Both the position numbers and the translations under genes were made by a program. A stretch of DNA of 49,689 bases from a phage. Positions within the stretch are counted from its first letter, which is position 1, and each line of letters starts with the position of its first letter. The stretch lies in sequence record NC_105788.1; one strand, 5' to 3'. The notes beneath the pieces are model-generated. The model had not been told where the DNA came from, searched no databases, and saw only the letters and a list, made by a program, of their open reading frames with translations. This document shows positions 45-42,913 of the stretch, one piece after another.

Positions 45-749
45 ATGAAGTTGATTTGGTCCCTATTCGACGGTTCCGGTCTTGCAGGTCATGAACTGGC
101 TAAGCAAGGTCACAAGGTGATGTGCTTCAACTTTGACGGAGCCGATCACGGAGATTATGCAAAGTACAATGCCCGAGTGGAGCATCCGAACATTGAGTAT
201 GTGAACGTGTTCATTGACGCAGCGTTTGAGCGTGATGCTATCGCTGGCGTGTATGGCAAGCCGGATTTCATTATGGCCTTCCCGCCGTGCACTGACCTAG
301 CTGTTAGTGGTGCCGCTCACTTCGCAAGAAAGCGTGAACGCGATCCGTTATTCCAGGAGAAGGCTGTTGCCACCGCCCGGATTGCTGCGAACATTGGCGA
401 TAGCCTGGGCGGGACTTACATCATTGAGAATCCGGTAAGCGTCCTGTCGTCTGCGTGGAGAAAACCAAATCACTCCTTCAATCCCTGGGAGTATGGCGGC
501 TATCTTCCTGAGAATGACTCACACCCCTGGTTCCCGATGTATATTGCGCCGCGCGATGCTTACCCGAAGAAAACTTGTCTGTGGACCTCTGACGATTTTG
601 TCATGCCTGAAAGAAAACCTGTAAGCCTGCCTGACGGGTACTCTGCACAGCACAGCAAGCTAGGCGGCAAGTCTGCCAAAACTAAACTGATACGCTCTCT
701 GTCGCCCAGGGGATTTTTTAAAGCGATCGCAAATAGCACTTTTTGTTAA
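45..749 (+). CDS. DNA (cytosine-5)-methyltransferase-like protein (short orphan MTase)
   Basis: ATG with AAGGAG RBS 8 nt upstream; N-terminal LFDGSG (motif I, FxGxG), FPPC (motif IV Pro-Cys), IIENP (motif VI ENV-like); last codons ANSTFC-stop are encoded by the conserved box. Confidence 0.55.
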   Translation: MKLIWSLFDGSGLAGHELAKQGHKVMCFNFDGADHGDYAKYNARVEHPNIEYVNVFIDAAFERDAIAGVYGKPDFIMAFPPCTDLAVSGAAHFARKRERDPLFQEKAVATARIAANIGDSLGGTYIIENPVSVLSSAWRKPNHSFNPWEYGGYLPENDSHPWFPMYIAPRDAYPKKTCLWTSDDFVMPERKPVSLPDGYSAQHSKLGGKSAKTKLIRSLSPRGFFKAIANSTFC

Positions 750-752
750 AAC
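733..752 (+). promoter_or_regulatory. conserved box ATAGCACTTTTTGTTAAAAC, followed by hairpin-free spacer, CATAAT and conserved leader TACCTCATCGAAACGAGA
   Basis: one of about 25 copies of the box; overlaps stop codon of upstream gene. Confidence 0.6.
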
Positions 753-810
753 TCGATCGGTGTGATTTGGCATAATTACCTCATCGAAACGAGATTGAGG
801 AAAAACAAAA

Positions 811-996
811 ATGGCACGTCGCATCACTAAAGACCTTAAAGTTCTGAACAAAGAAAACGTAGTTAAGATCCTGGTTATTTGGGGATACAGCGAAGAGTCA
901 GCAAAGCAGAAGGTCGATGCTGGTTATGACCTGGCTATCAAAGCAATGCCTAACGACGACGCTAAAGGTATTGCAAACTACGTATCTTTCTTCTAA
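811..996 (+). CDS. hypothetical small protein (61 aa)
   Basis: ORF track; ATG 811 preceded by GAGG; sits between two box cassettes. Confidence 0.5.
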   Translation: MARRITKDLKVLNKENVVKILVIWGYSEESAKQKVDAGYDLAIKAMPNDDAKGIANYVSFF

Positions 997-1011: not shown

Positions 1012-1197
1012 ATGAAAACAAAATTAGTTCATAAATCAGAGATCAAGATCGGCGATACTGTGATTCACAACGGAGAGCTTAAAACTGTTGGTAAGGAGTC
1101 GATAACCAAAGATGAATTTATGGGTCTATTGTTGTTCGGCGACTCCTATCGACTTGGTTACAAAATGGTTGAGCTTGTTGAGGATGTAAAATTCTAA
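1012..1197 (+). CDS. hypothetical small protein (61 aa)
   Basis: ORF track; stop immediately followed by box. Confidence 0.5.
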   Translation: MKTKLVHKSEIKIGDTVIHNGELKTVGKESITKDEFMGLLLFGDSYRLGYKMVELVEDVKF

Positions 1198-1217
1198 ATA
1201 GCACTTTTTGTTAAAAC
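1198..1217 (+). promoter_or_regulatory. conserved box ATAGCACTTTTTGTTAAAAC (start of a 65-bp cassette nearly identical to the one upstream of the Dam gene)
   Basis: sequence identity to other copies; followed by CATTAT and TACCTCATCGAAACGAGA leader. Confidence 0.6.
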
Positions 1218-1279
1218 TGCCGGAATGGAATCTGGCATTATTACCTCATCGAAACGAGATACACATCAGGAGCAAGAAA

Positions 1280-1615
1280 ATGAAATACGAAAATCGCGGT
1301 AACGAAATCATCAAAATCGAAAACGGCGTTGAGTACATCATGGTTGCTTGCAAGGTTAACGGAATGGACTCATTCGTTTGGGAAGAAATCAAAACTGAAG
1401 ACAAAGCAGCTAAATTCCTGACCTGTGTTAATCAGCCTGATATGGAACGCGATACCTTCACTCGTTACGGTAAATATGAAATCGTTCGCGAGACTTCCTG
1501 CTTCTGGTGGGTCAAGCCTAACAGCCAGTACAAATTCCCGCGCAAAATCAGCAAGCGCACTATGCGCGAATCTGGCTTCAAGAAAGCATACGCCGCCGAG
1601 TTTGACATTGATTAA
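1280..1615 (+). CDS. hypothetical protein (111 aa)
   Basis: internal ATG of ORF 1208..1615 preceded by CAGGAG RBS; upstream part of ORF is the box cassette. Confidence 0.55.
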   Translation: MKYENRGNEIIKIENGVEYIMVACKVNGMDSFVWEEIKTEDKAAKFLTCVNQPDMERDTFTRYGKYEIVRETSCFWWVKPNSQYKFPRKISKRTMRESGFKKAYAAEFDID

Positions 1616-1634
1616 TAGCACGAATTGCTAAACG
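1615..1634 (+). promoter_or_regulatory. conserved box ATAGCACGAATTGCTAAAC followed by hairpin CCCCGA..TCGGGG and TATAGT
   Basis: box copy overlapping stop TAA of upstream gene. Confidence 0.6.
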
Positions 1635-1689
1635 CCCCGAGTGAGATCGGGGTATAGTTAACACATCAACCAATCAGGAGAATCAACAG

Positions 1690-1920
1690 ATGGCAATTAA
1701 ACACCCCGGGCTGAAGAAGGCAATTCAGCGCGCCAATGATGAGGGATTCATTGTCTACAGAACGCATTACGGTCACATGGGTGGCTTGAAAGAGCATCAT
1801 ACAAAGATTGAGCTTGTCGACTTGTGGGAGGATTACGATACATTCCAGTATATCGCCACGTCTGACGTAGAAGCGCAAGTGAAATACATCAACGACACAA
1901 TTGATAGTTTCAGAGGGTAA
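1690..1920 (+). CDS. hypothetical protein (76 aa)
   Basis: ATG preceded by AACCAATCAGGAG conserved RBS block. Confidence 0.55.
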   Translation: MAIKHPGLKKAIQRANDEGFIVYRTHYGHMGGLKEHHTKIELVDLWEDYDTFQYIATSDVEAQVKYINDTIDSFRG

Positions 1921-2979: not shown

Positions 2980-2999
2980 ATAGCACGAATTGCTAAAGA
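2980..2999 (+). promoter_or_regulatory. conserved box ATAGCACGAATTGCTAAAGA
   Basis: box copy directly after stop of 2506..2979. Confidence 0.6.
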
Positions 3000-3057
3000 C
3001 ATGCTATCGGGGGTGATATATATTACTCCCACACCAAACGAAACAAAGGAATCAAAA

Positions 3058-3495: not shown

Positions 3496-3515
3496 ATAGC
3501 ACGATTTGTTAATAT
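3496..3515 (+). promoter_or_regulatory. conserved box variant ATAGCACGATTTGTTAATAT
   Basis: box copy after an unannotated acidic open frame. Confidence 0.5.
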
Positions 3516-3575
3516 TGCCGTAAGGTCATTTGATAAAGTGGCCTTATTCAAGATAACCAATCAGGAGCGAACGCA

Positions 3576-3992
3576 ATGAAAACCATTAAACTTAAATGCA
3601 CTTCAGCAGACAAAATCACAGGATTCGAAGTAAACAATCTGTATAAAGGTCGTGAGCGCTATGATGGCACTCGCGAAGTAAAGTTAAAATGCGGTAAGTA
3701 TTTAAAACTTGAAAAGCATGATGAATTACAGATTCACGGATCTGATGAAATCTTCTTCGCGAAGTTCACCGAGTTGAAAACAAAGACGCTCAAGTGCACC
3801 GGACTTGACCATCGCAACCCGATGAAAAAATCATTCAAAGTTGGCAAGCGTTATCAGGTAGAAAGCGGTCGCGCTCTTGGTGGCGTAGCTGGTTACATCT
3901 TTGATGAAGATGGATATCGCTGGACCCTGTTTCGCGAAGAGGTTGGTTTTAGTATCGCAGACGGCACAACCTTTGAGGCCAAATACTTATAA
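3576..3992 (+). CDS. hypothetical protein (138 aa)
   Basis: ATG preceded by AACCAATCAGGAG block. Confidence 0.55.
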   Translation: MKTIKLKCTSADKITGFEVNNLYKGRERYDGTREVKLKCGKYLKLEKHDELQIHGSDEIFFAKFTELKTKTLKCTGLDHRNPMKKSFKVGKRYQVESGRALGGVAGYIFDEDGYRWTLFREEVGFSIADGTTFEAKYL

Positions 3993-3995
3993 CCA

Positions 3996-4015
3996 ATAGC
4001 ACTTTTTGCTAAACG
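3996..4015 (+). promoter_or_regulatory. conserved box ATAGCACTTTTTGCTAAACG
   Basis: box copy after stop of 3576..3992. Confidence 0.6.
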
Positions 4016-4068
4016 CGTGTACCATTGGCGGTGTATCATTCACACCGTCAACAAAGGAGTTTATTGTG

Positions 4069-5637
4069 ATGTTTAATATTAAGCCAAAACTGAATTACCA
4101 ACAGATTATTGAGATCGCAAATAGCACTGGAGTTAATCCGGTGGCGATCGCAATTCGTGAAAACAGCTATGGGGATTCAGTTTCGTTTTGGCAAGATCCG
4201 ATCGATATCAACAGTGGAAACGATAAGTTCCCGCTGATTTCGTTAGGTGGCGATAACCTGGTATTCGAATATGCAAAGGCAAAGGCTGAGTCTGTACAGT
4301 TTCCTGTTTCGTCTGCGTACGCTCATTTCATTGGGTGCATCTCAGCCGCGATGCTAGGGAAGTTTTGGGTGCAATATCACGGAGAAGAGCAACCGACCGC
4401 TCTTTATATGGTGATTAGTCAGCCACCTTCAACAGGTAAATCAGCTATTAACTCAGCGGCGATTACACCTATGCGTGCGGAGATTCAGCGGCTGAATGAA
4501 GAGCGAAAAAAGGAGCGCATCCGTTTAACCAGTCAGCTACGTCAGGTCGAGAAGGAAATCAAAAACGATCCAAAGGGTAATACGACGGCGGCGCTGTACG
4601 AAGACAAGGAAAAACTGGAAGAAAAGATCAAGAAGATGGCTGATATTGTTTTTGCGGTATCAGATCCTACACCTGAAGGTCTTGCGAAAGTTGCGGCTGT
4701 TCAAGGTCATTTCTCAGTAATCTCTGATGAGGCAACGGCAATAAATACATTGCTTGGCCTGACTTATGGCGGCTCTGATAAGAAATCAAACAGCGAGCTT
4801 ATACTCAAGGCGTGGGATAAAAACCATATGGAGGTTGCGCGTTCAAATCAGGACAACAACTTATCTCTTTGCCCGGTCGGTTCGATCTGCGTCATTGCGC
4901 AGGATGAAACAATCAAGGGTATCATGGACGCAGGCCAGCGCGGCATCGGTGTATCTGAGCGTTTCCTCCTGGTTCGCGAGGAACCGCTTTTAGGTACTCG
5001 TATTCTTTGCGATGAAAATGGTGATGCGCTGTATAAGGAAGTCGATCGAGGGTTGGTGAGTAAATATTATCGACTCGTGCACAACATTATGAAGGAGGAC
5101 AACATTGTTCTCTCTGTAAGCCGCAATGCTATGCGTGAATTAAACCTTGCGCGTCAGGCGATGGAGCCGGATTTCGCAGCCGGGGGAAAATACTCTCACT
5201 CAATGCTACGCGGTCATCTCGGCAAGTTCGATAAGCATGCCTTGCGTATTGCTTCAGTTCTCCACACGATCAAGAATTGGGAGGGTGAATCACCGAACCG
5301 TTCCAACCGTGAGATTGACCTTGAAACAATGCAGGAAGCAATCATGATTTTCAATGAGCTTTCCAGGACTTATCTGTCGTCTGCCAGCGCTGCCGGGTAT
5401 GCTGGTGATGAGGCTGAATCTCGTAAGCTGATTGATGTTATCACTGAGATCGCAAAGAAGAACAAAGGGCGCGCTCCGATTCATAGCATTGTTGCAAAGT
5501 GCCGGAATGTTACGCCGTTCAACGGTCAACAGAAAGTATCTGAGCGAATCGACAGCCTGCTGATCACGCTCGAAGAGATGAACTACACTTGCCGGATTGA
5601 TGATATTGTTTTCATCAACCCTCGACTGATGGGTTAA
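4069..5637 (+). CDS. large early protein of unknown function (about 522 aa) with P-loop-like PPSTGKS motif
   Basis: ATG 4069 (GTG 4066 possible) after AAAGGAG; long uninterrupted ORF; motif resembles DUF3987-type NTPase signatures but not verified. Confidence 0.55.
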   Translation: MFNIKPKLNYQQIIEIANSTGVNPVAIAIRENSYGDSVSFWQDPIDINSGNDKFPLISLGGDNLVFEYAKAKAESVQFPVSSAYAHFIGCISAAMLGKFWVQYHGEEQPTALYMVISQPPSTGKSAINSAAITPMRAEIQRLNEERKKERIRLTSQLRQVEKEIKNDPKGNTTAALYEDKEKLEEKIKKMADIVFAVSDPTPEGLAKVAAVQGHFSVISDEATAINTLLGLTYGGSDKKSNSELILKAWDKNHMEVARSNQDNNLSLCPVGSICVIAQDETIKGIMDAGQRGIGVSERFLLVREEPLLGTRILCDENGDALYKEVDRGLVSKYYRLVHNIMKEDNIVLSVSRNAMRELNLARQAMEPDFAAGGKYSHSMLRGHLGKFDKHALRIASVLHTIKNWEGESPNRSNREIDLETMQEAIMIFNELSRTYLSSASAAGYAGDEAESRKLIDVITEIAKKNKGRAPIHSIVAKCRNVTPFNGQQKVSERIDSLLITLEEMNYTCRIDDIVFINPRLMG

Positions 5638-6049: not shown

Positions 6050-6161
6050 GCAAGGATTACTTAGCCTACTGCTCACTTCGATGAGGGCCAATAACGACGG
6101 TGAGCACAATCTTTGCGATCAGGATGGGGAGTTGCTACTTCACGTCAAAAGGTACAAATAG
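5961..6161 (+). CDS. hypothetical protein (66 aa)
   Basis: ATG after GGAG RBS; stop TAG lies inside a box copy, as for many other genes. Confidence 0.45.
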   Translation: MKNCLANVETLIDRNVELCARLQLTKEEFEQGLLSLLLTSMRANNDGEHNLCDQDGELLLHVKRYK

Positions 6162-6177
6162 CACTTTTTGTTAAAAC
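6158..6177 (+). promoter_or_regulatory. conserved box ATAGCACTTTTTGTTAAAAC followed by hairpin CCCGAT..ATCGGG, TATATT and TTCATCGAAACGAAACG leader
   Basis: box copy. Confidence 0.6.
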
Positions 6178-6238
6178 ACCCGATCTCGCATCGGGTATAT
6201 TTGTTTCATCGAAACGAAACGACCTGAAGGAAAACATC

Positions 6239-6454
6239 ATGGCTAACAAATTTTTAGTAGTTCGCGTTTACAATCACTCAAACGGTACTAGTAGTGAGAT
6301 TCCTACTCTTTACAGCAAGACTGATGGGTGGACTGAAGAAGCGGCGGTGGCGAACGAGAAGAAGGTCGCTGAGATGTACGGCGACACCTGTGAAATTGAA
6401 GTTCGCGAATACGCAAAACTCACGAACGAAAGTTACATGTGGGCTGATGCATAA
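6239..6454 (+). CDS. hypothetical protein (71 aa)
   Basis: ATG 6239 after GAAGGA RBS (internal start of ORF 6113..6454). Confidence 0.5.
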   Translation: MANKFLVVRVYNHSNGTSSEIPTLYSKTDGWTEEAAVANEKKVAEMYGDTCEIEVREYAKLTNESYMWADA

Positions 6455-7690: not shown

Positions 7691-7867
7691 TTAATCTATC
7701 GCAATAAATTCCAGATAGCTGCCGTTCAGAGGAGCCTGGATTGCTGAACCTCGCCCGTCGTAAATCTCAAATAATCCCCCACCGAAATCATAACCAACAC
7801 TATAGATCTGATTTACGCGGAATGGAAGTGTTTTGGAGTCATTTCGGATGCACTTAACTCGTTTCAT
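7691..7867 (-). CDS. hypothetical small protein (58 aa, below ORF-track cutoff)
   Basis: manual translation MKRVKCIRNDSKTLPFRVNQIY...; AAGAGGA RBS 6 nt upstream; coordinates approximate. Confidence 0.4.
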   Translation of the reverse strand: MKRVKCIRNDSKTLPFRVNQIYSVGYDFGGGLFEIYDGRGSAIQAPLNGSYLEFIAID

Positions 7868-7921
7868 GATATATCCTCTTTGTTTTCGTTGTGGTTACTA
7901 TACCCGAATCCCTTCGGGCGT

Positions 7922-7939
7922 CTTTATCAATTAGTGCGA
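7922..7939 (-). promoter_or_regulatory. degenerate box copy (GCACTAATTGATAAAG) followed by hairpin CCCGAA..TTCGGG and TATAGT
   Basis: resembles box cassettes; overlaps stop codon of 7931..9082. Confidence 0.4.
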
Positions 7940-9082
7940 TCCTGTCATTTCTGGACGATATATGAAACGACCGATTTCCCCAAACTGCTTATCGTAAACA
8001 ATTACCGCCGCCTGGCGATACGATCGCCACCCTCCGCGTGCTGCGTATGCATCTTTCGCGCCTAACTGGCCGTGTACTTCATCAATACCAAGCGAGTGCT
8101 CAGTGATTGTCTGGTGATGCCAGTGACCACTATGAGTATACACATACTTGCTCTCGCCGAAGTCTGATCGGAAATCTGCCGCCATTGCTGCAAGTCTCGT
8201 ATCTGCCTTCTTCATAGTGTGACCGTGAGTGTATCCCAACAAAGTATTTCCCCAACGAGTCTTATGCAGAATCATAGGACTAACATCAACGAATACTCGC
8301 GGCTCGTCTTCATAATATGCCGACATTGCAGCTCGCAGCCAAATCATCCCAGACTGATCGTGGTTCCCTTCGATAACCTGGACCTCGACTTCTTTGTGTT
8401 TCATAAGCATTTTGTCGATGGCGCGACGCACAGAACGAATCGCTACATGCACCAATTTCGCATATCGTGAATCCTGATCCAGAACGTGACCGCTTGCCGG
8501 GGTAACAGCGTCAAGGCCGTCAGAGTGAAGGAAGTCGCCACCGATTAACAGAACAGCCTTCTCTGCGTTCGGCGCAATATCGATCGCGTAATTAAAGAAG
8601 TCGCTAAGCACTTTTTCCGCTACGTCGGTGGAATAGTTCTCACCGCATTCATGCTTATGAGCAAGCGCGCCAATATGGAGATCGAATACCGGATAGAGTG
8701 CCAGCTTACCCATCGCTGTCGTAAGCCCTTGCGAGGTTAGTAGCTCGGTTGGCTTTGCTCGCGGCAGGTCTTCACAGAATGCAATACGCGCCGCTTCCAT
8801 CATTGCCGCAATCTTCTCACGGTCCTGATCGGTTTTAACCCAGCGCACTACCTCGGTCCCATCTCCGCGAATCATCGTTGATGTGCCTTTTACCATGAAT
8901 CCTTCCGGTACGTTCTTAGCAACATGCTCGTTACCGTGGAAGTGGCCTTCTTTTGCCAATTTTGCGTGGCGAGCTTCAACCGTGCGAATGTGCATACCGT
9001 ACTTTTCCGCGATCTCGCGAAGTGTAAGTCCGTTCATGCGTTCTTCGATAAGTTGCTCGGTAGTGATTTTAGATTGTGACAT
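7931..9082 (-). CDS. HTH domain fused to calcineurin-like metallophosphoesterase (Mre11/SbcD-like nuclease or PPP-type phosphatase)
   Basis: N-terminal helix-turn-helix-like segment (LTLREIAEKYGMHIRTVEARHAKL); metallophosphoesterase motifs DLHIG, GGDFLHSD, GNHD, GHTMKK, GHWHH; AAGGA RBS. Confidence 0.65.
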   Translation of the reverse strand: MSQSKITTEQLIEERMNGLTLREIAEKYGMHIRTVEARHAKLAKEGHFHGNEHVAKNVPEGFMVKGTSTMIRGDGTEVVRWVKTDQDREKIAAMMEAARIAFCEDLPRAKPTELLTSQGLTTAMGKLALYPVFDLHIGALAHKHECGENYSTDVAEKVLSDFFNYAIDIAPNAEKAVLLIGGDFLHSDGLDAVTPASGHVLDQDSRYAKLVHVAIRSVRRAIDKMLMKHKEVEVQVIEGNHDQSGMIWLRAAMSAYYEDEPRVFVDVSPMILHKTRWGNTLLGYTHGHTMKKADTRLAAMAADFRSDFGESKYVYTHSGHWHHQTITEHSLGIDEVHGQLGAKDAYAARGGWRSYRQAAVIVYDKQFGEIGRFIYRPEMTGSH

Positions 9083-9160: not shown

Positions 9161-9562
9161 TCATGCCACAGCCTTTAACCAGAATCCTAGATCTGAAGAT
9201 TTAAACTCAACCAGTTTTCCATTAACCTCAAGCATCATACTGTTTCTACCTGGTGAGTAATAACCTATATGCAACTCTTGCTCGATCCCAATAGTGCAAA
9301 GCACATTAACGAAGTCAGGAGGCAACCAATCAGAGAAAGGGATTTTCTTAACCTGCTTCTTTCCGATCCATATGGTCTGGTAGTCATCTAAGTTAATGTT
9401 TAAGCCTGGAAGACTTGTTGCTCTTTGCTGTTTTTCGTTCTCGCTCAATTCTCTTTCCTTCTTCACGATAAAATTCAAGTGATGGGGTAGCTGGCACTCT
9501 ATGCATTTTTCTCGGCATATCTTCCATAAATGAAATCTTTCCGTTTGAGATAATGCTAACAT
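9161..9562 (-). CDS. C-terminal frame of a frame-disrupted gene (hypothetical)
   Basis: protein-like ORF with no credible RBS at its own ATG; overlaps 9393..9665 by 170 nt in another frame. Confidence 0.3.
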   Translation of the reverse strand: MLALSQTERFHLWKICREKCIECQLPHHLNFIVKKERELSENEKQQRATSLPGLNINLDDYQTIWIGKKQVKKIPFSDWLPPDFVNVLCTIGIEQELHIGYYSPGRNSMMLEVNGKLVEFKSSDLGFWLKAVA

Positions 9563-9665
9563 CCTTTATATCGAAATATTTTGCTATTAGTGCTATATCG
9601 TCTGAGATTCCGCATTCCTTTGCGTGCTCCCACACTTCGCGCTTACCTTTCTTTTTTATCAGCAT
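9393..9665 (-). CDS. N-terminal frame of a frame-disrupted gene (hypothetical)
   Basis: good GGAGAAA RBS at 9665 start; 3' part looks like out-of-frame readthrough (KR-rich). Confidence 0.35.
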   Translation of the reverse strand: MLIKKKGKREVWEHAKECGISDDIALIAKYFDIKDVSIISNGKISFMEDMPRKMHRVPATPSLEFYREEGKRIERERKTAKSNKSSRLKH

Positions 9666-9852
9666 TAGTTAATTTCTCCACGTCAGAGATGAAGCCTTCG
9701 ACTTCTTCAACCGAGCAACGGTAATAAGACATTTTAAGGAAGTTCATAGCAATATCCCAATCGAAGTTGCCACCTTGCTTACTCGTAATATGAACGGCCA
9801 TTTTTGCAGACTGCTGGGCGATATTGAAAAAGTTTGCGTTAATGCGTGCCAT
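9643..9852 (-). CDS. hypothetical protein (69 aa)
   Basis: internal ATG of ORF 9643..9867 with GAGGAA RBS. Confidence 0.45.
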   Translation of the reverse strand: MARINANFFNIAQQSAKMAVHITSKQGGNFDWDIAMNFLKMSYYRCSVEEVEGFISDVEKLTNADKKER

Positions 9853-9908
9853 CTTCTGATTCCTCATTTCGTTTCTATGAAATAACTATACCCGACTTTC
9901 GCCGGGTA

Positions 9909-9928
9909 GTTTTAGCAATTAGTGCTGT
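9909..9928 (-). promoter_or_regulatory. box variant (AGCACTAATTGCTAAAAC) followed by hairpin TACCCG..CGGGTA and TATAGT
   Basis: box-like sequence overlapping stop of 9919..10170. Confidence 0.45.
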
Positions 9929-10170
9929 GTGATTATCTCAGAAGAAAGTTCTTCTACGTCTTTTTGGATGATTGAAGGCCAACGCTCGATATATTCATTT
10001 TTTATCTCATCGAAAGACATATCAAGAGAACTGGTGAACTCCCACAGATCGCAACCAATAACATCCTGAGTCAATCCGTTTTGCTCCATAATTTCGCAGC
10101 ACGTAGCGCGATAAAGAAGCCATAAACCTTGCTCAGTTAATTTAACAGGAACCATTTTTTCGCTCATCAT
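9919..10170 (-). CDS. hypothetical protein (83 aa)
   Basis: ATGA overlap with Dam stop; GGTGAGGAAAG RBS. Confidence 0.5.
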   Translation of the reverse strand: MMSEKMVPVKLTEQGLWLLYRATCCEIMEQNGLTQDVIGCDLWEFTSSLDMSFDEIKNEYIERWPSIIQKDVEELSSEIITQH

Positions 10171-10880
10171 ACTTTCCTCACCTTTGCTCGTTTGTTTTTA
10201 ACCGAAGGGCAAATGCTTGTGATTGGGATATAGTGAGTTTGCTGTGTCTCACCCTCTTTAAGTTCGCGCATGATAAAAATTACCGAACCTTTGTTATTAC
10301 CATCTACGGCCTTTCCAGTTTCACCGGATATGAAAGCCAGGCGACCGGATCGTGCGTATTCATTGCCGTCAATATCCTCAGTCAAGTCCGCTTCAATCCA
10401 GATTATTTCAGCTGCGTTCTGTCGCGCCTCAGTAAACCACGCCGTAGAGTTATCTGCAGGTAAAAGCATATCGATCTGATTGTTGTGCTCCATTTGCTCA
10501 ATGGCCTTCTTGACAAATATATCAGGTCGGCTATAAGGAGGATTTAACCAAACGTGCTTATTCTTTCCCCACCAACGTTTTAAGCAGTTTGTTTCCTGAG
10601 AGTAAAACTTCTCGCAAACTTTATTTTCTTCGCTTGCCGCAGCGTCGAGATCATATTTCCCATAACGACCCTCAAGGTATGCAATAACCTCGCGCGGAGT
10701 TGACCATAAATCACGAACAGCGTCAGGGGTATTTGTCCCCTTGTATCGACGCCCTGAAATCTCTTTGCAGGTTGGCGTTTTCAATGCCTGATAATAACCG
10801 CCTGATGCTATTGCTTCGCGAGTGAATGAGCAACCAGTCTCTGCAAAGTCGATGGTTTCAATATCATTAAAGTCTTTCAT
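10167..10880 (-). CDS. dam: DNA N6-adenine methyltransferase (phage Dam-like)
   Basis: WLNPPYS catalytic motif (NPPY); GAGAGGA RBS; preceded by a full box cassette. Confidence 0.75.
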   Translation of the reverse strand: MKDFNDIETIDFAETGCSFTREAIASGGYYQALKTPTCKEISGRRYKGTNTPDAVRDLWSTPREVIAYLEGRYGKYDLDAAASEENKVCEKFYSQETNCLKRWWGKNKHVWLNPPYSRPDIFVKKAIEQMEHNNQIDMLLPADNSTAWFTEARQNAAEIIWIEADLTEDIDGNEYARSGRLAFISGETGKAVDGNNKGSVIFIMRELKEGETQQTHYIPITSICPSVKNKRAKVRKV

Positions 10881-10931
10881 CTTTAGTCCTCTCGTTTCGG
10901 TGAGATAATAATGCCAGATTCCATTCCAGCA

Positions 10932-10951
10932 GTTTTAACAAAAAGTGCTAT
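10932..10951 (-). promoter_or_regulatory. conserved box (minus strand reads ATAGCACTTTTTGTTAAAAC); cassette nearly identical to 1198-1265
   Basis: box copy overlapping TAG stop of VRR-NUC gene, upstream of Dam. Confidence 0.6.
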
Positions 10952-11364
10952 TTCATTAATTCGTAAATTGCGACCTTGAATTGCTCAAATCCGTATGCGA
11001 CGGCAGGGAAGCCGCCACGCTCACGGACCTTTCGGAGAAATTCCCTTTGCTTGTCGCTGACTGGTGACGCCTTTCCTTTGCCTGACTTATTAACCCGCTT
11101 AAGTTCGATTGCTGCAAACGGGTATCGTGAGTTAACACCAATCAGGATAACAAAGTCTGACACGCCTTTAAGTAATCCGGCCTGCTCATCCCTGAGCGCC
11201 GATGTGATTGTTTTTTCACCTTCATTGACAGTGTGCCAAAATAGAAGGTGAGGAAAATTGTATTTCAGCCAGGATACACAATCCACCTGATGAGCGTCCT
11301 CCTTTCTAGTGTCGCTTGGATCTCTCTCGTAAAATTCTAAATAATCACCTTTGTCTGTAATCAT
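10948..11364 (-). CDS. VRR-NUC domain nuclease
   Basis: PD-(D/E)xK-like arrangement (GVSDFVILIG ... AAIELK); GGAGGA RBS inside helicase 3' end. Confidence 0.6.
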   Translation of the reverse strand: MITDKGDYLEFYERDPSDTRKEDAHQVDCVSWLKYNFPHLLFWHTVNEGEKTITSALRDEQAGLLKGVSDFVILIGVNSRYPFAAIELKRVNKSGKGKASPVSDKQREFLRKVRERGGFPAVAYGFEQFKVAIYELMK

Positions 11365-13379
11365 TCCGGGATATCCTCCATACCAAAGTCTTTTCGTGAG
11401 ATAATATCTTCTTTCTTCTGGTTGCGACGATGAGTTACGCGCACCGGGTGAGCAATATGATGTGAGTATTGCAAAATCTTGATGGCGTTCTTCATTCCGA
11501 TAAAGTATCGGCGCATTTTAGGATCTGATACGTGTGGCAATACACCTTTAGTTTTCCATAGCGTACCGCAAATCTTAGAGTCAGACTCGGGGAAGAATTT
11601 TTCATACGCCTTGAACTCATCACCATCATCGTTAATAAGAGTGTATTTGTATATTATGCCTTTCTGGTTTTTGGTTAGCGTAACCTCAAAATTCTTTACT
11701 TCATACCAGTCATTCTTGGTGTACGCCTTACCGGATAACTTCAGGTTGGGATCGACAAGCGAAACATCACAACAACGACAGACTCGAGCCACAACGTCAT
11801 TCTCTGCACCGCATCCTTTAACAAGGATTTTCCCGGTACGTTCATCAACCTGGTCCTCGCAAATCTGAGAAGTCCAGAAATAATCGCAACGTTCACCATC
11901 AATAACATTAACGCATCGTCGAGCATAGAAGCTATTTACGCAACCGCATTTCGGACATGTTTTCGGATCTTTTCCGTTTTCAAATCGCTTTTGGAATTGC
12001 GCCTGCTCAAGTATCGGATCGAAATAAAGCTGCCCCAGCTCATCCATGGTGCCTGCAAAATCCCACACCAAATGGTCTTGCTTAACCATTCCCTCAGCAA
12101 CCTGCCAGGATTTAAGCAGACGCATACCCCTACCCAAAAGCTGAATCAACAGAGTGAGCGACCCTATCTTGCGGAGTATGACACTGAAATCCCAATTTGG
12201 AACGTTAACGCCAGTCGTGAGCGCCATGACCTGAAAGGTGTATTTAATCTTCCCAGCCCTTACATCGTCCAGAATCTTCTTGCGCGTTTTGGTGTCTGTG
12301 TCGCCAGTGATTATTGCATAGGTGCTTCCTGGAGGCAGTGCCGCAGCCGCCTCTTTACAGTGACGCACCCCCGCGCATGTAATCAGAACCGCGTTACGTT
12401 CTTCAGCCTTTTTGGCGACCATTTGCATGATTCGCTGAGTAAGAGATTTATCATGAAGGATCTCATCTTCCATTGCCTTCATATCTTTCTCTGCAAAGTC
12501 CTGTACGCCGTCCTCGCTTGATGCCTTGAACTTATCCAGGTCGTAGTGTACGCCGTCAGTCGAACCGAATATCGTCGGCACAACAGAGCCAAACTCAATC
12601 AGATAGTTTGTGTCGATATCAGTTACGCGCTCACGCCAGAATCCTAACGCATTTGGATTCTCCACCAGAATCGGAACAACGCCCCTAAATTCAGATCCTG
12701 TCATGCCAAATATTCTGAGGTCATGCCCGTGAATCTCTTTACAGCGACGCATCATCTCCATGATTACGATCGTGTACTGGCTTCGCTTAGTTCCAAGTAA
12801 AGGTTTCCCATCATTACCAATCAGAGGAATCTCCCCGTCCATAATAATTTTCCCTTTCTCGCCCCTCATCTGCTCCATCGTTTCTTTTCCTTCGATGGCT
12901 TGAGCAAGGTCTTCCCAATCCACCTGGTGACATTCGTCGATCCCAATTACATGCGGGACAAAATCAGCCAACTCATTGTCGAGGCCATTTGCAACCGTAC
13001 CCTCAGAGCCAACCACGATCGGGAAGTAGCAGGACTTGATTCCAAGCGATGCTGAGAAGATGGAGTTCGTTACCCCGAAGTTGTCGATCTCCTCACTATC
13101 CTGATCGACAATCTCACCCTGTCGGGCAAGCACAAGCATTTTCAGGCCCATTTTTTGACACTGCTTTGCCACCATAGCGAATATGATTGTTTTACCCGCA
13201 GATACTGACGCTTTAACAAAGAATGGATGCTCGTAATTTGACAGGCGTTTTGCGATCTCGGCATAAGCAACAACCTGATACGGATAAGGAACGACCTCAC
13301 CGACAGTGAATCGTTCTTGAGTGCGTTTTATATAGTCCTCGCCAAGTAATGCGATTTGCTTCTTGATGTTAATTGTCAC
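11361..13379 (-). CDS. SF2 DNA helicase with C-terminal Cys-rich (zinc-binding-like) region
   Basis: Walker A SAGKT, DExH box IDECHQ, C-terminal CPKCGC..C..C cluster; start codon appears to be GTG. Confidence 0.75.
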   Translation of the reverse strand: MTINIKKQIALLGEDYIKRTQERFTVGEVVPYPYQVVAYAEIAKRLSNYEHPFFVKASVSAGKTIIFAMVAKQCQKMGLKMLVLARQGEIVDQDSEEIDNFGVTNSIFSASLGIKSCYFPIVVGSEGTVANGLDNELADFVPHVIGIDECHQVDWEDLAQAIEGKETMEQMRGEKGKIIMDGEIPLIGNDGKPLLGTKRSQYTIVIMEMMRRCKEIHGHDLRIFGMTGSEFRGVVPILVENPNALGFWRERVTDIDTNYLIEFGSVVPTIFGSTDGVHYDLDKFKASSEDGVQDFAEKDMKAMEDEILHDKSLTQRIMQMVAKKAEERNAVLITCAGVRHCKEAAAALPPGSTYAIITGDTDTKTRKKILDDVRAGKIKYTFQVMALTTGVNVPNWDFSVILRKIGSLTLLIQLLGRGMRLLKSWQVAEGMVKQDHLVWDFAGTMDELGQLYFDPILEQAQFQKRFENGKDPKTCPKCGCVNSFYARRCVNVIDGERCDYFWTSQICEDQVDERTGKILVKGCGAENDVVARVCRCCDVSLVDPNLKLSGKAYTKNDWYEVKNFEVTLTKNQKGIIYKYTLINDDGDEFKAYEKFFPESDSKICGTLWKTKGVLPHVSDPKMRRYFIGMKNAIKILQYSHHIAHPVRVTHRRNQKKEDIISRKDFGMEDIPE

Positions 13380-13393: not shown

Positions 13394-13422
13394 TTGAATC
13401 GTTGTATCGTTTACGCTATAAT
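13394..13422 (+). promoter_or_regulatory. sigma70-type promoter (TTGAAT-17 bp-TATAAT) for Cro-like gene
   Basis: perfect -10 hexamer and 17-bp spacer read directly; a box copy lies at about +12 to +31. Confidence 0.55.
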
Positions 13423-13440
13423 ACACGACATACAGTAAAC

Positions 13441-13460
13441 GTTTTTAGCAAAAAGTGCTA
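13441..13460. promoter_or_regulatory. conserved box in inverted orientation (GTTTTTAGCAAAAAGTGCTA) between promoter and RBS
   Basis: operator-like position immediately downstream of predicted start site. Confidence 0.55.
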
Positions 13461-13473
13461 CAGGAGAATTAAG

Positions 13474-13926
13474 ATGAATATGCAACGTATCGCAGAATCA
13501 ACTGGTGAAATCGATAAACGTCACATTAATGGTAACAACGGAACGCGACGCGGTAAAGATAAAAAGCCTCGCCAACGCTGCGGTTTCTATATCCACAAAG
13601 AAGAAACACGCGCCGGACTGAGAGCGCGACTTGACGCTCTTATTGAATATTACGGCGGCCCAGCGGCCTGCGCAAAGGCTCTGAAAGTTAGCAATCAGAC
13701 CGTGCAAGGCTGGAAAGAGCGCAATATGATTTCGTGGCAAGGTGCTGAAGCTGCACATCGTGCTTACCGTCGTCAGGGTTGTAAAGGATTCCGCGCCGCA
13801 TGGTTGCGATTCGACCTCAAGTTTGACGGTAACGGCAAGTGTCTAGAGAAACGATGCAAGAACAAGAAGTTTATGCGAGTGGTGAGGAAGGAAGATATCG
13901 GGACGACCAATAGCATTTTTAGTTAA
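13474..13926 (+). CDS. Cro/C1-type HTH DNA-binding protein
   Basis: HTH segment GGPAACAKALKVSNQTVQGWKE; CAGGAG RBS; last codons TNSIFS-stop encoded by a box copy. Confidence 0.55.
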   Translation: MNMQRIAESTGEIDKRHINGNNGTRRGKDKKPRQRCGFYIHKEETRAGLRARLDALIEYYGGPAACAKALKVSNQTVQGWKERNMISWQGAEAAHRAYRRQGCKGFRAAWLRFDLKFDGNGKCLEKRCKNKKFMRVVRKEDIGTTNSIFS

Positions 13927-13929
13927 AAC
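13910..13929 (+). promoter_or_regulatory. conserved box variant ATAGCATTTTTAGTTAAAAC
   Basis: box copy overlapping 3' end of Cro-like gene. Confidence 0.5.
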
Positions 13930-13934
13930 AAACG

Positions 13935-13970
13935 ACGCGTAGCGGGGTAACATCCTTCTACGCGTTTTTT
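13935..13970 (+). terminator. intrinsic terminator (ACGCGTAG ... CTACGCGT + T6)
   Basis: 8-bp stem followed by T-run. Confidence 0.55.
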
Positions 13971-13986
13971 ATTTGGAGATCTGGAA

Positions 13987-14950: not shown

Positions 14951-14979
14951 TTGCAAGACCAGTACCACAATGATAAAAT
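14951..14979 (+). promoter_or_regulatory. sigma70-type promoter with extended -10 (TTGCAA-17 bp-TGaTAAAAT) for tail fibre gene
   Basis: read directly; box copy overlaps predicted start site. Confidence 0.55.
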
Positions 14980-14983
14980 CAGT

Positions 14984-15003
14984 GCTTAGCAATTCGTGCT
15001 ATT
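14984..15003. promoter_or_regulatory. conserved box in inverted orientation (GCTTAGCAATTCGTGCTATT) at predicted +1 region
   Basis: box copy between -10 and RBS. Confidence 0.55.
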
Positions 15004-20982: not shown

Positions 20983-23900
20983 TTACCATGAGCCAGTCAA
21001 CCTGCCAATCTGAACCCTAAGGCGACCACTCGCATCCCTAACAGATATTGTGGTATTGGTTTGCTTCATTGCACCCTCACCGTCACTTCCGTAGTTTTCA
21101 AATGTACCTCCCTTGTCAAGTCTCCAGCCAGCCTTGTTAACGACATAGTTATTCGATTGAATAACGTTACCAATCATCGCATTCGTGATGAATCCGTTCT
21201 TAATGATGGCACTATTAAGAATCACCTGATTACCTTCAACAACGAAAGGATACTGAGTCTGGCCATTCATTCCAGTCATGATTGCAAATCGTGACGCTTC
21301 GAATAGAATTTGCGCTTTAACCGCCGCGCCGGAACCAATCAGAGACATGGCCATGCCTGCGCTGTATTCCTGACCGTTATATTTCAGACCTAGCTTGACG
21401 CCGTACATTGCCCCAGTCGAATTAGCGTTACTCCATGAGTCTAATTTTTGAGCAAGTGCTGCCTCGTTATCTCCAAGCCTTGCGCTCAGCGTCAAGTCGG
21501 CTTGCGTTCTCGCCTCAGTTTCATTTGCGATAGCCTCGCGGATATCGGTCAAACTTGCCTGAATATCGTCACCAATCTGAGCCTTAAGCTGGTCAATCTC
21601 ACGCGATAAAGCCTCAGTTTCAGTTGCGATAACTTCACGCAGTTCGCTATTGCTTGCGCTAATCTGATCACCAAAACTTGCCCTCAACTGCTCAACTGCT
21701 GTTACTCGCGCCTGAGTCTCATCAGCAATTAGTTGCAGTGATTTGGTGTACTCTGCTTTTCGTTTTCCGTTCTCCTTCTTCATGTAGATCGCGTCTTTGT
21801 CATTAGCTAGTGCGTTCTCAATTGCTGCCTCTGCGTTCGCTGCGTTCTGCGACGCGTTGTCGGTTGCGTTATCAACAAGCCATTCGTAACCCGGCGAGTT
21901 TTCGATATCGACAGAAATCTCTCCGATGATATCGTCAACGTTTGTTGATGCCATGCCCCTGACAAAATCAGTCCACTGAGACACGTTACCGATCCTGTCA
22001 ACTGTCCTTACCCGATACCACACAATATTCCCTCCCGGCATCGGTGAGTGATAATACTCATGCTGCGGGTACGGAATCAAAGAAAGCAAACTTGCGTTAT
22101 CCACTGTTCCATCCGGTGACTGTTGCAACTCTGTATAGGCCGTATCTCCAGAACCATCAGAGAACCCCCATTTTGTACGGATACCAAAAACAACATCATC
22201 CGTAGCTGTAAGGTTAATCGGTCGGCCCGGCTCACCTTGTTTACCCGTCAGCGTCGCAGCTACGATATTTGACCATCCTGAAGTCGTACCGGAACCAGCG
22301 ACAGAGCGAACGCGAACCTGATAGTTGCCAGCGTAAATACCTTCAACGTATACCTCTTTATTTGCCGTCTGCGGTACATTTTGCCAGTTGCCGTTATCCT
22401 TTCGCCACTGGACGTCATAGAAAACTGCGTACGGCACTTTATCCCAGCTAACAATCATCGTTTCTACGCTCATCCCCTGGACGATTCTCGACTCTGAGGA
22501 CACTTGCACGTTTTCCGGTCTAGGGATCTGATCTGGTTCAACGATGCTCGTCGGTCGGTCGTCGATGTTAACTCCGTAATCAATCTCGTCGTACTTGTTA
22601 GGATCGTACTCCACCGCCGTGATTTTGTAGGTAAATTCCTCGTCATCATCGCCCTTATCGATTTTTGTCACGACGTACTGTTGTAGCGCAATGTCTGTGC
22701 GGTCGATAGCGAATACCGTGTTAGGCTTCACAGGAAAGCCAAAGCCAATGTTAACCTCTATAGTCTTACCATCCGCACTAACACTTGAGATTGTGCGCTT
22801 CACGGGCTTTCCGTCGGGCTTATTTACGATAATAAAGTCACCTGCGCGCGCATCCACACGGAACGGCAAGAAAATCTGGCTTCCAGACACTTCAAGCAAG
22901 CGCCCTGATAGGTTCATAGTCAAGTTGCTTGACCAGAAGTTGTCGGCTATTGCCACAACATCACCTATTGTCGGGATCATGCCCTCAAGCCCGGTCGCGA
23001 AGTTTACCGTAGTGCTGCGAAGGTTGGTCTTCAGAATCCATCGCCCTCGTCGGTTAGCCTCGCTTCGACGCGTGCAACCTATCGCTGTAATGCTGGTTAC
23101 GTTATTACCGAACCGCAGAGTCGCCTCACGATCGAATACTGGCTCAACGTCCTGTTGATACATGTTTTGTTCGTCGTCAAACATCACGTTACACGTCGTG
23201 TACATACTCTTTTCGCTTGCGAACGTATAGGAGAAGTCACCATTAACAACGTTGTCGTTAGTGAAGATGTACGCAGGCTCACGCGGTCTGTCGATGATTA
23301 CCGAGATGCTTTCACCATTCCAGAAGCTCATACCACGGAATATTGAGCAAATATCTCGAATCACCTTGTACGCATCAGTCTGTGACTGAATTATCACGTC
23401 GCAAAGGTAGCGAGGCTCCGTACCACCTTTCCCGTCGGGAACCATCTGGTCGCAATATTGCGCCGCCTCATAGAGCGCCCATTTATCGACGGAGATTCCA
23501 AGCTCCTTCTGATCCAGCCCGTAGCGCTGATTAATCATCAGGTCGTATAGAACCCATGCCGGGTTGTTAGTCCACGCCTTCTTGAAAGTCCCATCCCAAT
23601 TGCCGTTGTAGGTTCGTGATTCCGGATCGTAGTTTGATGGAACGTTTACAATCTTCCAGCGCTTACGAATTGAGATCGTAGGTAACTGGTTTGGGAACAT
23701 CTTCGAGTCGAACTCGACGAAAAGAAGACCTGTCAGAGGGTAACGGAATTTGGCATCAATCACCTCGGCATAGCTCTTTACTTGGATCGCATCAACAACG
23801 TTAGAGTCGTTAGAGTCTGGAGTCTTTCGAACAACTCTGAATATTACCTGACTGTTGAAGTTCGGAAGGTTTACGCGACGACTTCGATCGTAACCTGACA

Positions 23901-24402: not shown

Positions 24403-24450
24403 GATGTTTACCTTTTTGTGCTATTTATCGGTAGACTCATTATACAGGCG

Positions 24451-30592: not shown

Positions 30593-30612
30593 ATAGCACT
30601 TTTTGTTAAAAT
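30593..30612. promoter_or_regulatory. conserved box (ATAGCACTTTTTGTTAAAAT, inverted relative to gene) directly abutting the gpG RBS
   Basis: box copy inside late operon. Confidence 0.5.
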
Positions 30613-30684
30613 TTAATCGAATAAAGTTGATAAGATGATTTTACAGAAATGAATAAGGGGGCGCAAGCCCCCTATGGATGGTAT

Positions 30685-34323: not shown

Positions 34324-34350
34324 AAAAAAGCCGTGATTATGTTCACGGCT
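34324..34350 (-). terminator. hairpin plus T6 upstream of major capsid gene
   Basis: AGCCGTGA-ACATAA-TCACGGCT + T6. Confidence 0.5.
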
Positions 34351-34356
34351 TCAATA

Positions 34357-34376
34357 ATAGCACTTTTTGTTAAAGC
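34357..34376. promoter_or_regulatory. conserved box (ATAGCACTTTTTGTTAAAGC, inverted relative to local genes)
   Basis: box copy between decoration-like gene and capsid gene. Confidence 0.5.
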
Positions 34377-34393
34377 GTCAAAGTGTTTTTATG

Positions 34394-41048: not shown

Positions 41049-41063
41049 AAATCCATCCTCTTT

Positions 41064-41089
41064 GTTTAACATTTAGTGCTATTTTACCA
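41064..41089 (-). promoter_or_regulatory. box copy (ATAGCACTAAATGTTAAAC) overlapping an extended -10 (TGGTAAAAT) upstream of TerS
   Basis: read directly on minus strand. Confidence 0.45.
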
Positions 41090-42287: not shown

Positions 42288-42631
42288 TATTTACCTCTCC
42301 CAAATGAAAAATTAACACCTAAAACCTGATTGCAAACCGACTCCATGTATCGCAACTGATATTGAGCAACCTTTGAAGGACTTAATTCATCGGAAAATAA
42401 ATCCTCAACATTGATTTCTTTTTTATGCTTGCGCTTCCATGCCTTGATGATATTTGGCAGGATTCGCTCACTTTTCCAGGCTGCAAACTCCGCTTGGTTG
42501 GTTGATGTTGGGGTAAGTTGTCTTTCGATCTGGTTAAGAATCTCAGCAGTAGCGCCTTTTACGTGAAGCTGTTCGCCGATAGTGTCGAGGATTTCACGCG
42601 CTTGTTTATCTGACAGGTTAATCGTGATCAT
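42287..42631 (-). CDS. hypothetical protein (114 aa)
   Basis: ORF track; AAGGAG RBS. Confidence 0.5.
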   Translation of the reverse strand: MITINLSDKQAREILDTIGEQLHVKGATAEILNQIERQLTPTSTNQAEFAAWKSERILPNIIKAWKRKHKKEINVEDLFSDELSPSKVAQYQLRYMESVCNQVLGVNFSFGRGK

Positions 42632-42837: not shown

Positions 42838-42893
42838 TTCGATTTTCTCTCTTCGTTGTCGATGAGGTAACTATATCAAGTCACCCCACCGAC

Positions 42894-42913
42894 GTTTTAG
42901 CAATTCGTGCTAT
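42894..42913 (-). promoter_or_regulatory. conserved box (minus strand ATAGCACGAATTGCTAAAAC)
   Basis: box copy overlapping TAG stop of kinase gene. Confidence 0.6.

Follow-up and report, generated by a model that had tools for sequence, protein, structure and literature searches.

Recurrent box, hairpin and -10 cassettes in a T1-like phage genome as candidate marbox-type, activator-dependent promoters

Here, we examine a compact intergenic cassette that begins at position 1,198 of sequence record NC_105788.1, a phage DNA of 49,689 nucleotides that was analysed at its full length and is called the window below, together with the further copies of this cassette in the same DNA. Its first 6 kb share 99.6% identity with Escherichia phage CLB_P3 (Drexlerviridae, Tunavirus) and 92% with many T1-like phages, and by sequence comparison the window is a T1-like coliphage. 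A gene that runs across the ends, from 49593 to 48, shows the window to be a circularly permuted whole genome. The cassette at 1,198 follows directly on the stop codon of one open reading frame (ORF) and leads into the next gene; between the two it holds a 20-nt box, a hairpin, an extended -10 element, a conserved leader containing a putative transcription start, and a Shine-Dalgarno (SD) sequence (Table 1). The box resembles the marbox, a 20-bp asymmetric sequence to which host activators of the AraC family bind as monomers, namely MarA, SoxS and Rob, or RamA in Klebsiella.

Counted in its 17-nt form, ATAGCACNNNNTGYTAA, the box occurs 22 times in the window at one mismatch or fewer, against 0.21 copies expected from shuffled sequence, and 27 times at two mismatches or fewer. 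A -10-like hexamer (TATAGT, CATAAT, CATTAT, TATATT, TATGAT and others were counted) starts exactly 21 nt past this 17-nt box, equivalent to 22 nt past TTGYTA, in 20 of the 27 copies, and at 22 nt in two more. The box usually begins at the stop codon of the upstream gene or at most one base away from it, and the downstream start codon follows 21-42 nt past the inferred transcription start. The repeated architecture that a preliminary description of this DNA had proposed is therefore real and far beyond chance, given the number of boxes, their fixed spacing and the hairpins that fold better than shuffles. Near-identity over about 65 nt between the cassettes at 1198 (+) and 10885 (-), also claimed there, is borne out by the twins 1196-1259 (+) and 10890-10953 (-), which share 95% identity across 64 nt. 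Its four copies of the leader, however, come down to two exact copies of TACCTCATCGAAACGAGA and one copy with two mismatches; looser relatives of the form CATCGA(A/C)AACGA stand at 6158, 42913, 47640 and 48379. Nor are the cassettes only early ones, as it had called them, since they also lie 5' of the helicase, primase and Dam genes and of the small gene 7691..7867 near the lysis genes.

The same cassettes are present in T1 and in Klebsiella phage KP36, whose terminase is only 65% identical. Across 52 T1-like loci from IMG/VR, the hexamer is offset by 21 nt in 288 boxes, by 20 nt in 57 and by 22 nt in 13, and the box hardly varies even between phages whose helix-turn-helix (HTH) regulators share only 45-60% identity. 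Some boxes of the HCF1-like lineage (locus L065, 7336 (-) and 6240 (-)) are one base shorter between GCAC and TTGCTAAA; these keep the distance from TAAA to the -10, so that the promoter-proximal half seems to be the positional anchor. Vibrio phage vB_VpP_1, which is T1-like in its head genes only, served as a negative control only, and IMGVR_UViG_2974632794_000001 (L067), which has a disrupted, rearranged regulator gene and no boxes, looks scrambled or mis-assembled and was dropped as a test.

A logo of 91 non-redundant cassettes shows the conserved block (A)ATAGCAC-n-W-W-TTGYTAAAA(c), followed by a hexamer close to TATAAT. G-14 is present in 74 of the 91, C-1 in 64 and A+1, 7 nt past the hexamer, in 67, which is the pattern of a textbook start site. 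The TGn of an extended -10 is found in 11 of the 22 window cassettes. Matches to TTGACA at the normal -35 position, with 17-nt spacing, average 1.5 of 6, which is the chance level, and the cassettes therefore read as promoters without a -35. TTGYTA was itself considered as a -35 and rejected, since 22 nt separate it from the -10, and the region 16-18 nt from the -10 holds no -35; the preliminary description had likewise judged it too distant. That description had left several options, among which the activator-dependent promoter is favoured by the fixed -10 distance, G-14 and the C-1/A+1 start, although the identity of the box as a marbox had been missed; RNA processing or attenuation fits the hairpin, acting on transcripts from upstream, but does not fit the box.

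The marbox consensus is 5'-gcannwwntgnnaaa-3' and non-palindromic (PMC12052159). The window contains 21 perfect GCAnnWWnTGnnAAA 15-mers, where 0.38 would be expected; T1 contains 20 and KP36 14, and an unrelated phage of the same size has one. The logo fits all ten specified marbox positions: G-47 and C-46 are present in 91 of 91 cassettes, A-45 in 90, W-42 and W-41 in 90-91, T-39 in 79, G-38 in 89, and A at -35, -34 and -33 in 89-90. C-44 is conserved in 84 of the 91 as well. In the E. coli K-12 genome, the mar and micF marboxes each carry one mismatch to the consensus, and the phage boxes are identical to the mar marbox at 16 of 20 positions and to the micF robbox at 15 of 20. Another host protein, Lrp, was compared in the same way: the 15-bp core of the box matches its consensus yAGhAwATTwTdCTr at 11-13 positions. 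However, where the Lrp consensus has W and A, the boxes have the conserved C-44 and a G or T at -43, a subclass of boxes with GAA mismatches it at four positions, and the match is weaker than that to the marbox. Lrp moreover usually needs clustered sites and would not explain the orientation rule described below, all of which makes binding by Lrp extremely improbable.

Further candidates were rejected. The sigma54 consensus has GG and GC doublets 10 nt apart (TGGCAC-N5-TTGC); the box has AG instead of GG, 8 nt instead of 10 nt between the doublets, and a position 30 nt upstream of the -10. A by-eye comparison with the motifs of IHF, Fis, DnaA, CRP and sigma32 gave none that fits the box.

Position and orientation extend the likeness to host promoters. 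Class II promoters are defined by a forward marbox that overlaps the -35 region, centred from -36 to -55 (near -41), with no recognisable -35; those of Salmonella average 1.9 matches to the -35 and ‘lack a recognizable -35’. The forward boxes of the 22 window cassettes are centred at about -40, taking the inferred start as +1. Between the 20-mer and the -10 lie 18 bp in the phage cassettes, and the E. coli genome has the same 18 bp at micF. In the structure of Rob and RNA polymerase at micF, Rob contacts -47G and -45A, and these are the same coordinates as in the phage logo, within a numbering uncertainty of 1 nt.

The box at 49313-49332 is arranged differently, as no -10 follows it in the forward direction; read in reverse, the 20-mer lies 15 nt upstream of the -35 of a promoter TTGTCA-17-TAGAAT. 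In E. coli, the marRAB promoter has its reversed marbox 16 nt from TTGACT-17-TATTAT. This class I layout is kept in T1 (hexamers TTGATT and TATGAT) and at nine other loci, with differing hexamers, and over all loci analysed the gap between reversed boxes and a following -35/-10 pair peaks at 15 nt, with 11 cases. The copies thus follow an orientation rule: forward copies are centred near -40, and the single copy beside a good -35/-10 pair is reversed and upstream. As judged from sequence, the cassettes carry every sequence feature that defines class II, and in one instance class I, promoters of the mar/sox/rob system.

The orientation rule also bears on the idea that no activator is needed, in which a good -10 with the extended -10 G-14 would suffice and the A/T-rich box would act as an UP-like element for the alpha C-terminal domain of RNA polymerase. 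The frequencies of TGn and G-14 given above are in line with this idea, the box occupies the position of proximal UP subsites, and an UP element is among the suggestions found in the consulted part of a re-annotation of phage TLS (PMC11447400). Conservation, however, is strongest at G and C (in GCAC and at the G of TG) and not in A/T tracts, and the reversed copy upstream of a -35 and the copies inside other promoters are left unexplained, so that we regard an activator-free promoter of this type as quite improbable.

Copies in repressor-like positions lie in the spacer of the major-capsid promoter, at +1..+17 of the tail-fibre promoter, at +16..+32 of the regulator promoter and in the 5' untranslated regions (UTRs) of the tail-tip and small-terminase genes. 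A marbox in the promoter spacer of pbpG mediates repression by MarA-type factors (PMC12052159), and by analogy the window boxes that overlap canonical promoters resemble such repression sites. On four late promoters the boxes sit where an operator might, which speaks for the main rival explanation, in which the box would serve as operator for a dimeric regulator encoded by the phage itself; the candidate is the Cro-fold HTH protein of 13474..13926 (homologue of T1 gp23). Bound at -42, this protein would activate the promoters without a -35, as lambda cI does at PRM, and would repress the promoters that it overlaps, including its own. The box is indeed a near-palindrome, TAGCA-N5-TGCTA, centred at -42; the canonical promoter of the regulator gene, TTGAAT-17-TATAAT, has its downstream box kept in KP36 and about 45 loci; and every contig with an intact regulator gene also has boxes, although this joint presence carries no independent weight, since the carriers are all members of a single phage family. 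In lambda, cI bound at OR2, a 17-bp operator at -42, activates PRM, a promoter with a poor -35, and represses the overlapping divergent promoter; cI differs from a marbox activator in being a symmetric phage-encoded dimer, and the parallel applies only if the regulator explanation is right.

Against an operator of the phage regulator stands the strong variation of its recognition helix by lineage (NQTVQGW versus VRLTNAY), with a constant box. For the box beside the regulator gene, the divergent helicase promoter already offers an explanation, as it needs this box as its -42 element. Furthermore, a symmetric dimer predicts neither a forward site at -40 together with a reversed one at -60, nor a ten-of-ten match to an asymmetric host consensus at micF spacing. 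Initially favoured, the regulator was downgraded on account of the fit to the marbox, the spacing shared with micF and the copy in class I layout, and we now consider it unlikely.

As for the regulator itself (13474-13926 (+)), residues 38-142 are predicted to form a Cro-like all-alpha core (pLDDT above 90), preceded by a nearly invariant, basic N-terminal arm, STGEIDKRxINGNNGTRRGKDKKxRKR, that is predicted to be disordered. T1 gp23 is annotated as ‘transcriptional regulator’. At 13417-13423, the regulator -10 (TATAAT, +) and the helicase -10 (TATTAT, -) overlap almost completely, an arrangement kept in KP36 and many loci, and the two promoters should therefore be mutually exclusive. The regulator transcript, from its sequence context, should end at the terminator of the primase cassette.

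We conclude that the box is probably a marbox bound by MarA, SoxS or Rob, and that the cassettes are probably sigma70 promoters that lack a -35, depend on a host activator and are combined with hairpins. A conserved host partner fits the near-invariance of the box among phages that have themselves diverged, with 45-65% identity between their proteins. No AraC-type domain turned up when about 40 non-structural proteins were scanned with Pfam, and tblastn of MarA against the window, T1 and KP36 gave no MarA homologue (best E-value 0.21).

Several points weigh against this conclusion. With TGn in half of the promoters and G-14 in 81%, the cassettes may fire without any activator. The box is tighter than the marbox consensus (A-48 in 97%, T-40 in 90%) and has a near-palindromic form, which would also suit a dimeric phage protein. 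Without an inducer, Rob is sequestered and inactive, and unstressed cells contain little MarA or SoxS; T1 nevertheless grows fast in ordinary broth. Moreover, the classical T1-resistant mutants are tonA and tonB, not rob; redundancy among the three activators, or basal activity, could mask a rob phenotype. The boxes are also present in ‘Vibrio phage Vc1’, but with its host given by the name only, this does not discriminate between the explanations. Finally, most hairpins lack a T-run, so that ‘terminator’ holds for a minority only.

If the box is a marbox, each cassette would be a sigma70 promoter that has no -35 and depends on an activator at the box, which at -50..-31, forward and 18 bp from the -10, has the class II layout. 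An activator sitting in the -35 region would displace sigma region 4 from the DNA and hold RNA polymerase through contacts to sigma region 4 and the alpha C-terminal domain. Both this displacement from the -35 and these contacts are known for Rob at micF. Rob is expressed constitutively and at a high level, and would therefore already be present when the phage DNA enters; in unstressed cells it is most likely the partner. Stress from antibiotics, oxidants or bile would raise promoter activity through MarA, SoxS and activated Rob, and in Klebsiella RamA could serve as partner.

The hairpin constitutes the second part of the cassette. From the end of the box to about +6, the 22 window cassettes fold better than shuffles (mean z -2.8, with 18 of the 22 below -1), 93 non-redundant cassettes from relatives have a mean z of -3.3, and the positions of the -10 hexamer are the least paired among these 93. 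Folding is 2.3 kcal/mol better for the sense than for the antisense strand (p 2e-9) and G-U pairs make up 12.5%, which together suggest an RNA structure in transcripts coming from the upstream gene. The preliminary description had placed the hairpin within the spacer of about 22 nt; this is so for about a third of the copies (e.g., 1218-1237), but many others have arms that flank the -10. In the primase cassette, the stems differ completely between lineages, the apical loop contains a -10-like hexamer in 17 of 23, most lineages have a T-run behind the hairpin, and double compensatory changes are found in four of five aligned pairs; by its sequence, this hairpin is a full terminator with the -10 as its loop. 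The hairpin of the 48379 cassette also shows a compensatory pair (gggAta/taTccc in T1, gggGta/taCccc in the window). Several cassette hairpins were labelled rho-independent terminators by the annotators of T1 and KP36, and those at 6178, 9908 and 10931 of the window are flagged as terminator-like. Most hairpins have at most three T in the next 8 nt, and this majority may act as a weak terminator, a 3'-end protector or a processing site. An Rfam search of the whole window gave no match at gathering score.

These RNA-level structures behind the box, the intergenic copies co-oriented with genes and the few boxes in 5' UTRs could also suggest that the box is no promoter element at all and acts either as a stoperator roadblock or as an RNA processing or attenuation signal. 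Neither the rigid 21-nt distance to the -10 nor the conserved CA start is expected on such grounds, and an RNA signal finds no Rfam match. The L5-type stoperators of mycobacteriophages are asymmetric sites at which a repressor blocks elongation inside transcription units, and their placement bears no fixed relation to promoters. Stoperators of this type were rejected, given the fixed distance and the finding of no L5-type repressor here; T1-like phages are virulent and have no known repressor of this kind. We therefore hold a role of the box outside promoters to be highly improbable.

Combined with a marbox-type promoter, the hairpin would make the cassette a stop-and-restart module. The 18-bp spacer, the -10 and the discriminator would double as an inverted repeat, and transcripts reading in from the upstream gene would fold into the hairpin. 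A transcript from the cassette's own +1 lacks the 5' arm; it would therefore form no hairpin and pass freely. Within about 80 nt, the cassette would thus end or mark one transcription unit and start the next.

Table 1. Cassettes, boxes and gene blocks of the window. Coordinates of class II-type cassettes span the box to the inferred start.
Feature	Position	Strand	Remarks
TAA stop codon of upstream ORF 1012..1197	1195..1197	+	box begins at next base
20-nt box ATAGCACTTTTTGTTAAAAC, forward marbox-like, inferred -50..-31	1198..1217	+	perfect match to GCAnnWWnTGnnAAA; 15/20 identical to E. coli micF robbox
15-mer GCA..AAA in the 1198 box	1201-1215	+	A site GCAC 1201-1204; AAA of B site (consensus YAAA) 1213-1215
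Hairpin tgccgga-atggaa-tctggca, 7-bp stem	1218..1237	+	dG -9.9, z -2.6; 3' arm enters first two -10 bases
TGG + CATTAT, extended -10 TGn and hexamer	1233..1241	+	hexamer 1236-1241
Inferred transcription start	1248	+	A of conserved CA, 7 nt past hexamer
Conserved discriminator and initial transcribed sequence TACCTCATCGAAACGAGA	1242..1259	+	
SD AGGAG and ATG of gene 1280..1615	1268..1282	+	AGGAG 1268-1272; ATG 1280-1282
Twin cassette, Dam methylase gene 10167..10880	10901..10951	-	box 10951-10932, CATTAT 10913-10908, inferred start 10901
Hairpin of Dam twin cassette	10931-10912	-	flagged terminator-like
Class II-type cassette, gene 811..996	733..783	+	
Class II-type cassette, gene 1690..1920	1615..1665	+	
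Class II-type cassette	2980..3031	+	-10 at 22 nt
Class II-type cassette, gene 3576..3992	3496..3546	+	
Class II-type cassette, helicase-like gene 4069..5637	3996..4046	+	
Class II-type cassette, gene 6239..6454	6158..6208	+	hairpin flagged terminator-like
Class II-type cassette, gene 7691..7867 upstream of lysis genes	7890..7940	-	
Class II-type cassette	9546..9596	-	degenerate box
Class II-type cassette, gene 9643..9852	9878..9928	-	hairpin flagged terminator-like at 9908
Class II-type cassette, helicase 11361..13379	13411..13461	-	-10 TATTAT overlaps TATAAT of divergent Cro-like regulator promoter
Primase cassette	13910..13975	+	box, strong hairpin (acgcgtag...ctacgcgt + T-run) holding -10-like TAACAT, then SD
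Class II-type cassette, gene 42628..42837	42863..42913	-	15-bp hairpin around -10
Class II-type cassette, gene 43591..44202	44236..44286	-	
Class II-type cassette, gene 44286..44732	44756..44806	-	
Class II-type cassette, gene 46063..46269	46303..46353	-	
Class II-type cassette, gene 46499..47005	47029..47079	-	
Class II-type cassette, gene 47077..47565	47590..47640	-	
Class II-type cassette, gene 48110..48304	48329..48379	-	
Class II-type cassette, gene wrapping 49593 to 48	49518..49569	+	-10 at 22 nt
Box + 21 nt + TGaTAAGAT, antisense into late (tail) genes	30593..30643	+	3' end of major tail gene region; kept in T1
Class I-type arrangement, reversed box 49313-49332	49269..49332	-	promoter TTGTCA (49297-49292) -17- TAGAAT (49274-49269)
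Canonical promoter TTGAAT-17-TATAAT (13394-13422), Cro-like regulator gene 13474..13926	13394..13461	+	reversed box 13445-13461 at about +16..+32
Tail-fibre promoter TTGCAA-17-TGaTAAAAT	14951..15002	+	reversed box at about +1..+17
Major-capsid-gene promoter TTGACG-16-TGcTATTAT	34345..34385	-	spacer = reversed box 34357-34373
Box in 5' UTR of tail-tip gene 20983..24402	24405..24424	-	downstream of a TATAAT
Box in 5' UTR of small-terminase gene	41063..41082	-	
Non-structural genes	49.5 kb through 0 to 6.4 kb	+	
Non-structural genes	6.4-13.4 kb	-	
Non-structural genes	13.4-16.9 kb	+	
Non-structural genes	16.9-19.2 kb	-	
Non-structural genes	41.1-49.3 kb	-	
Structural genes	19.9-41.1 kb	-	

The cassettes bear on gene annotation at several places. 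The CLB_P3-annotated starts of 3001-3282 (+) and 9161-9562 (-) lie upstream of the predicted transcription starts; for the former, the real start is probably ATG 3058, which is in frame and preceded by an SD, and not the annotated 3001, and ATG 9527 is in a frame different from that of the annotated ORF 9161..9562. The copy at 30593-30643 (+) may be an antisense promoter, as its sequence suggests. The first gene past the 48379 cassette (48110-48304 (-)) encodes a 64-aa protein that matches Pfam PF25180, ‘Phage antiviral trigger protein Gp54’ (E 1.8e-35). A 383-aa protein encoded at 7931-9082 (-) combines a weak N-terminal HTH like sigma70 region 4 (E 0.01) with a calcineurin-like phosphoesterase (metallophosphoesterase) domain; it corresponds to T1 gp16, ‘DNA repair exonuclease’, and the KP36 annotation mentions the same HTH. 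A strong terminator-like hairpin at 7643-7669 (-), with 11 pairs and TTTTGCGTTG, separates the small gene 7691..7867 from the holin gene, and the lysis genes would therefore need read-through or another promoter.

Other signals of the window were noted alongside. Near-consensus sigma70 promoters without a class II box lie at 48968-48996 (-), 49200-49229 (-) and 19199-19226 (-) (TTGACA-17-CACAAT with TG; TAGACA-18-TATAAT; TTGACT-16-TATAAT), and from their sequence may be activator-independent immediate-early promoters. In the late region, a minus-strand module at 24438-24482, 26617-26661 and 41088-41132 consists of a strong terminator hairpin (aacccgc..gcgggtt + T-run) and a -10-like hexamer right after it, in the contexts cTGTATAATg, cTGTAGAATg and cTGCAATATg; these modules look like terminator-promoter junctions between late operons. 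At 34303-34393 (-), 5' of the major capsid gene and directly downstream of the strong promoter TTGACG-16-TGcTATTAT, the hairpin agccgtg-aaCATAATc-acggct with a T-run has a -10-like hexamer in its loop and could be an attenuator, or a second promoter inside a terminator. A second repeated motif, AACCAATCAG(G/A)(A/G)G, is found 14 times, where 0.24 matches would be expected, in early and late genes, with sites including 1668-1680, 3555-3567, 18037-18049(-), 30579-30591(-), 44211-44223(-), 46278-46290(-) and 49573-49585. With about eight copies directly 5' of start codons, it looks like an extended ribosome-binding site.

The box itself is not new, because a repeat has been published for phage TLS (PMC11447400, 2024). 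There, the consulted part of the paper describes a 21-nt direct repeat, aaATAGCACnnnTTGnTAAAA, in 18 intergenic copies that are co-directional with genes and stand about 76 nt before start codons; the repeat is also reported in T1, Rtp and Rogue1, and its function is left open, with stoperator, enhancer and UP element as guesses and only three sigma70-like promoters (PMC11447400). The TLS repeat is the same element as the box, and that part of the paper does not mention the fixed -10 distance, the hairpin or a link to the marbox.

Class II promoters of E. coli and Salmonella, such as micF, share with the phage cassettes a 20-bp asymmetric marbox with GCAC and YAAA, forward over the -35 position, as well as 18 bp to a sigma70 -10, no -35 hexamer and a canonical start point. 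The phage promoters differ in being the main promoter class of a virulent phage, with about 20 per 50-kb genome, in matching the consensus better than the mar and micF sites with their one mismatch each, and in carrying a conserved hairpin in the spacer and -10 region. The class I site, TTTTTAGCAAAACGTGCTAT, shares 14 consecutive bases with the mar marbox, and both are reversed upstream of a good -35/-10; in the phage the gap to the -35 is 15 nt, not 16, and the window has one such copy. Phage T4 reportedly has PeSL (promoter-early stem-loop) cassettes, said to have been described by Arbiol et al. in 2010, which are repeated intergenic modules of promoter and stem-loop between small early genes and which reportedly could favour gene shuffling. 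In these, however, the stem-loop precedes a complete sigma70 promoter, whereas in the phage cassette the hairpin is nested inside a promoter without a -35.

A literature search gave no paper that combines MarA/SoxS/Rob with T1-like or Drexlerviridae terms, and ‘marbox’ with ‘bacteriophage’ gave nothing relevant; neither T1 transcription-start data nor a link between the marbox and T1 was found in this search. What seems to be new, relative to the searchable literature, is that the repeat is linked to the marbox, keeps a fixed geometry, has a class I copy and carries a nested hairpin; the promoter type and the repeat themselves are known.

The marbox explanation supplies the missing promoters and a specific, testable hypothesis. 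Tentatively, as something that may well not hold, we suggest that T1-like phages have wired almost all of their non-structural transcription, at about 20 promoters per genome, to the Mar/Sox/Rob system, and would thereby read the antibiotic, oxidative and bile-salt state of the host. With at least 20 marboxes on each replicating DNA, they could also soak up the activators and blunt the efflux and stress response, and the promoter nested in a hairpin or terminator with the -10 in its loop would be a compact insulator. This promoter-inside-terminator design may serve as a compact part for synthetic biology. If the marbox hypothesis holds, we know of no earlier case of a virulent phage family relying on the multidrug and stress-response activators of its host. 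It would then matter for the interplay of phages and antibiotics, for phage therapy with Drexlerviridae, and for explaining the success of T1-like phages in the bile-rich gut and in sewage.

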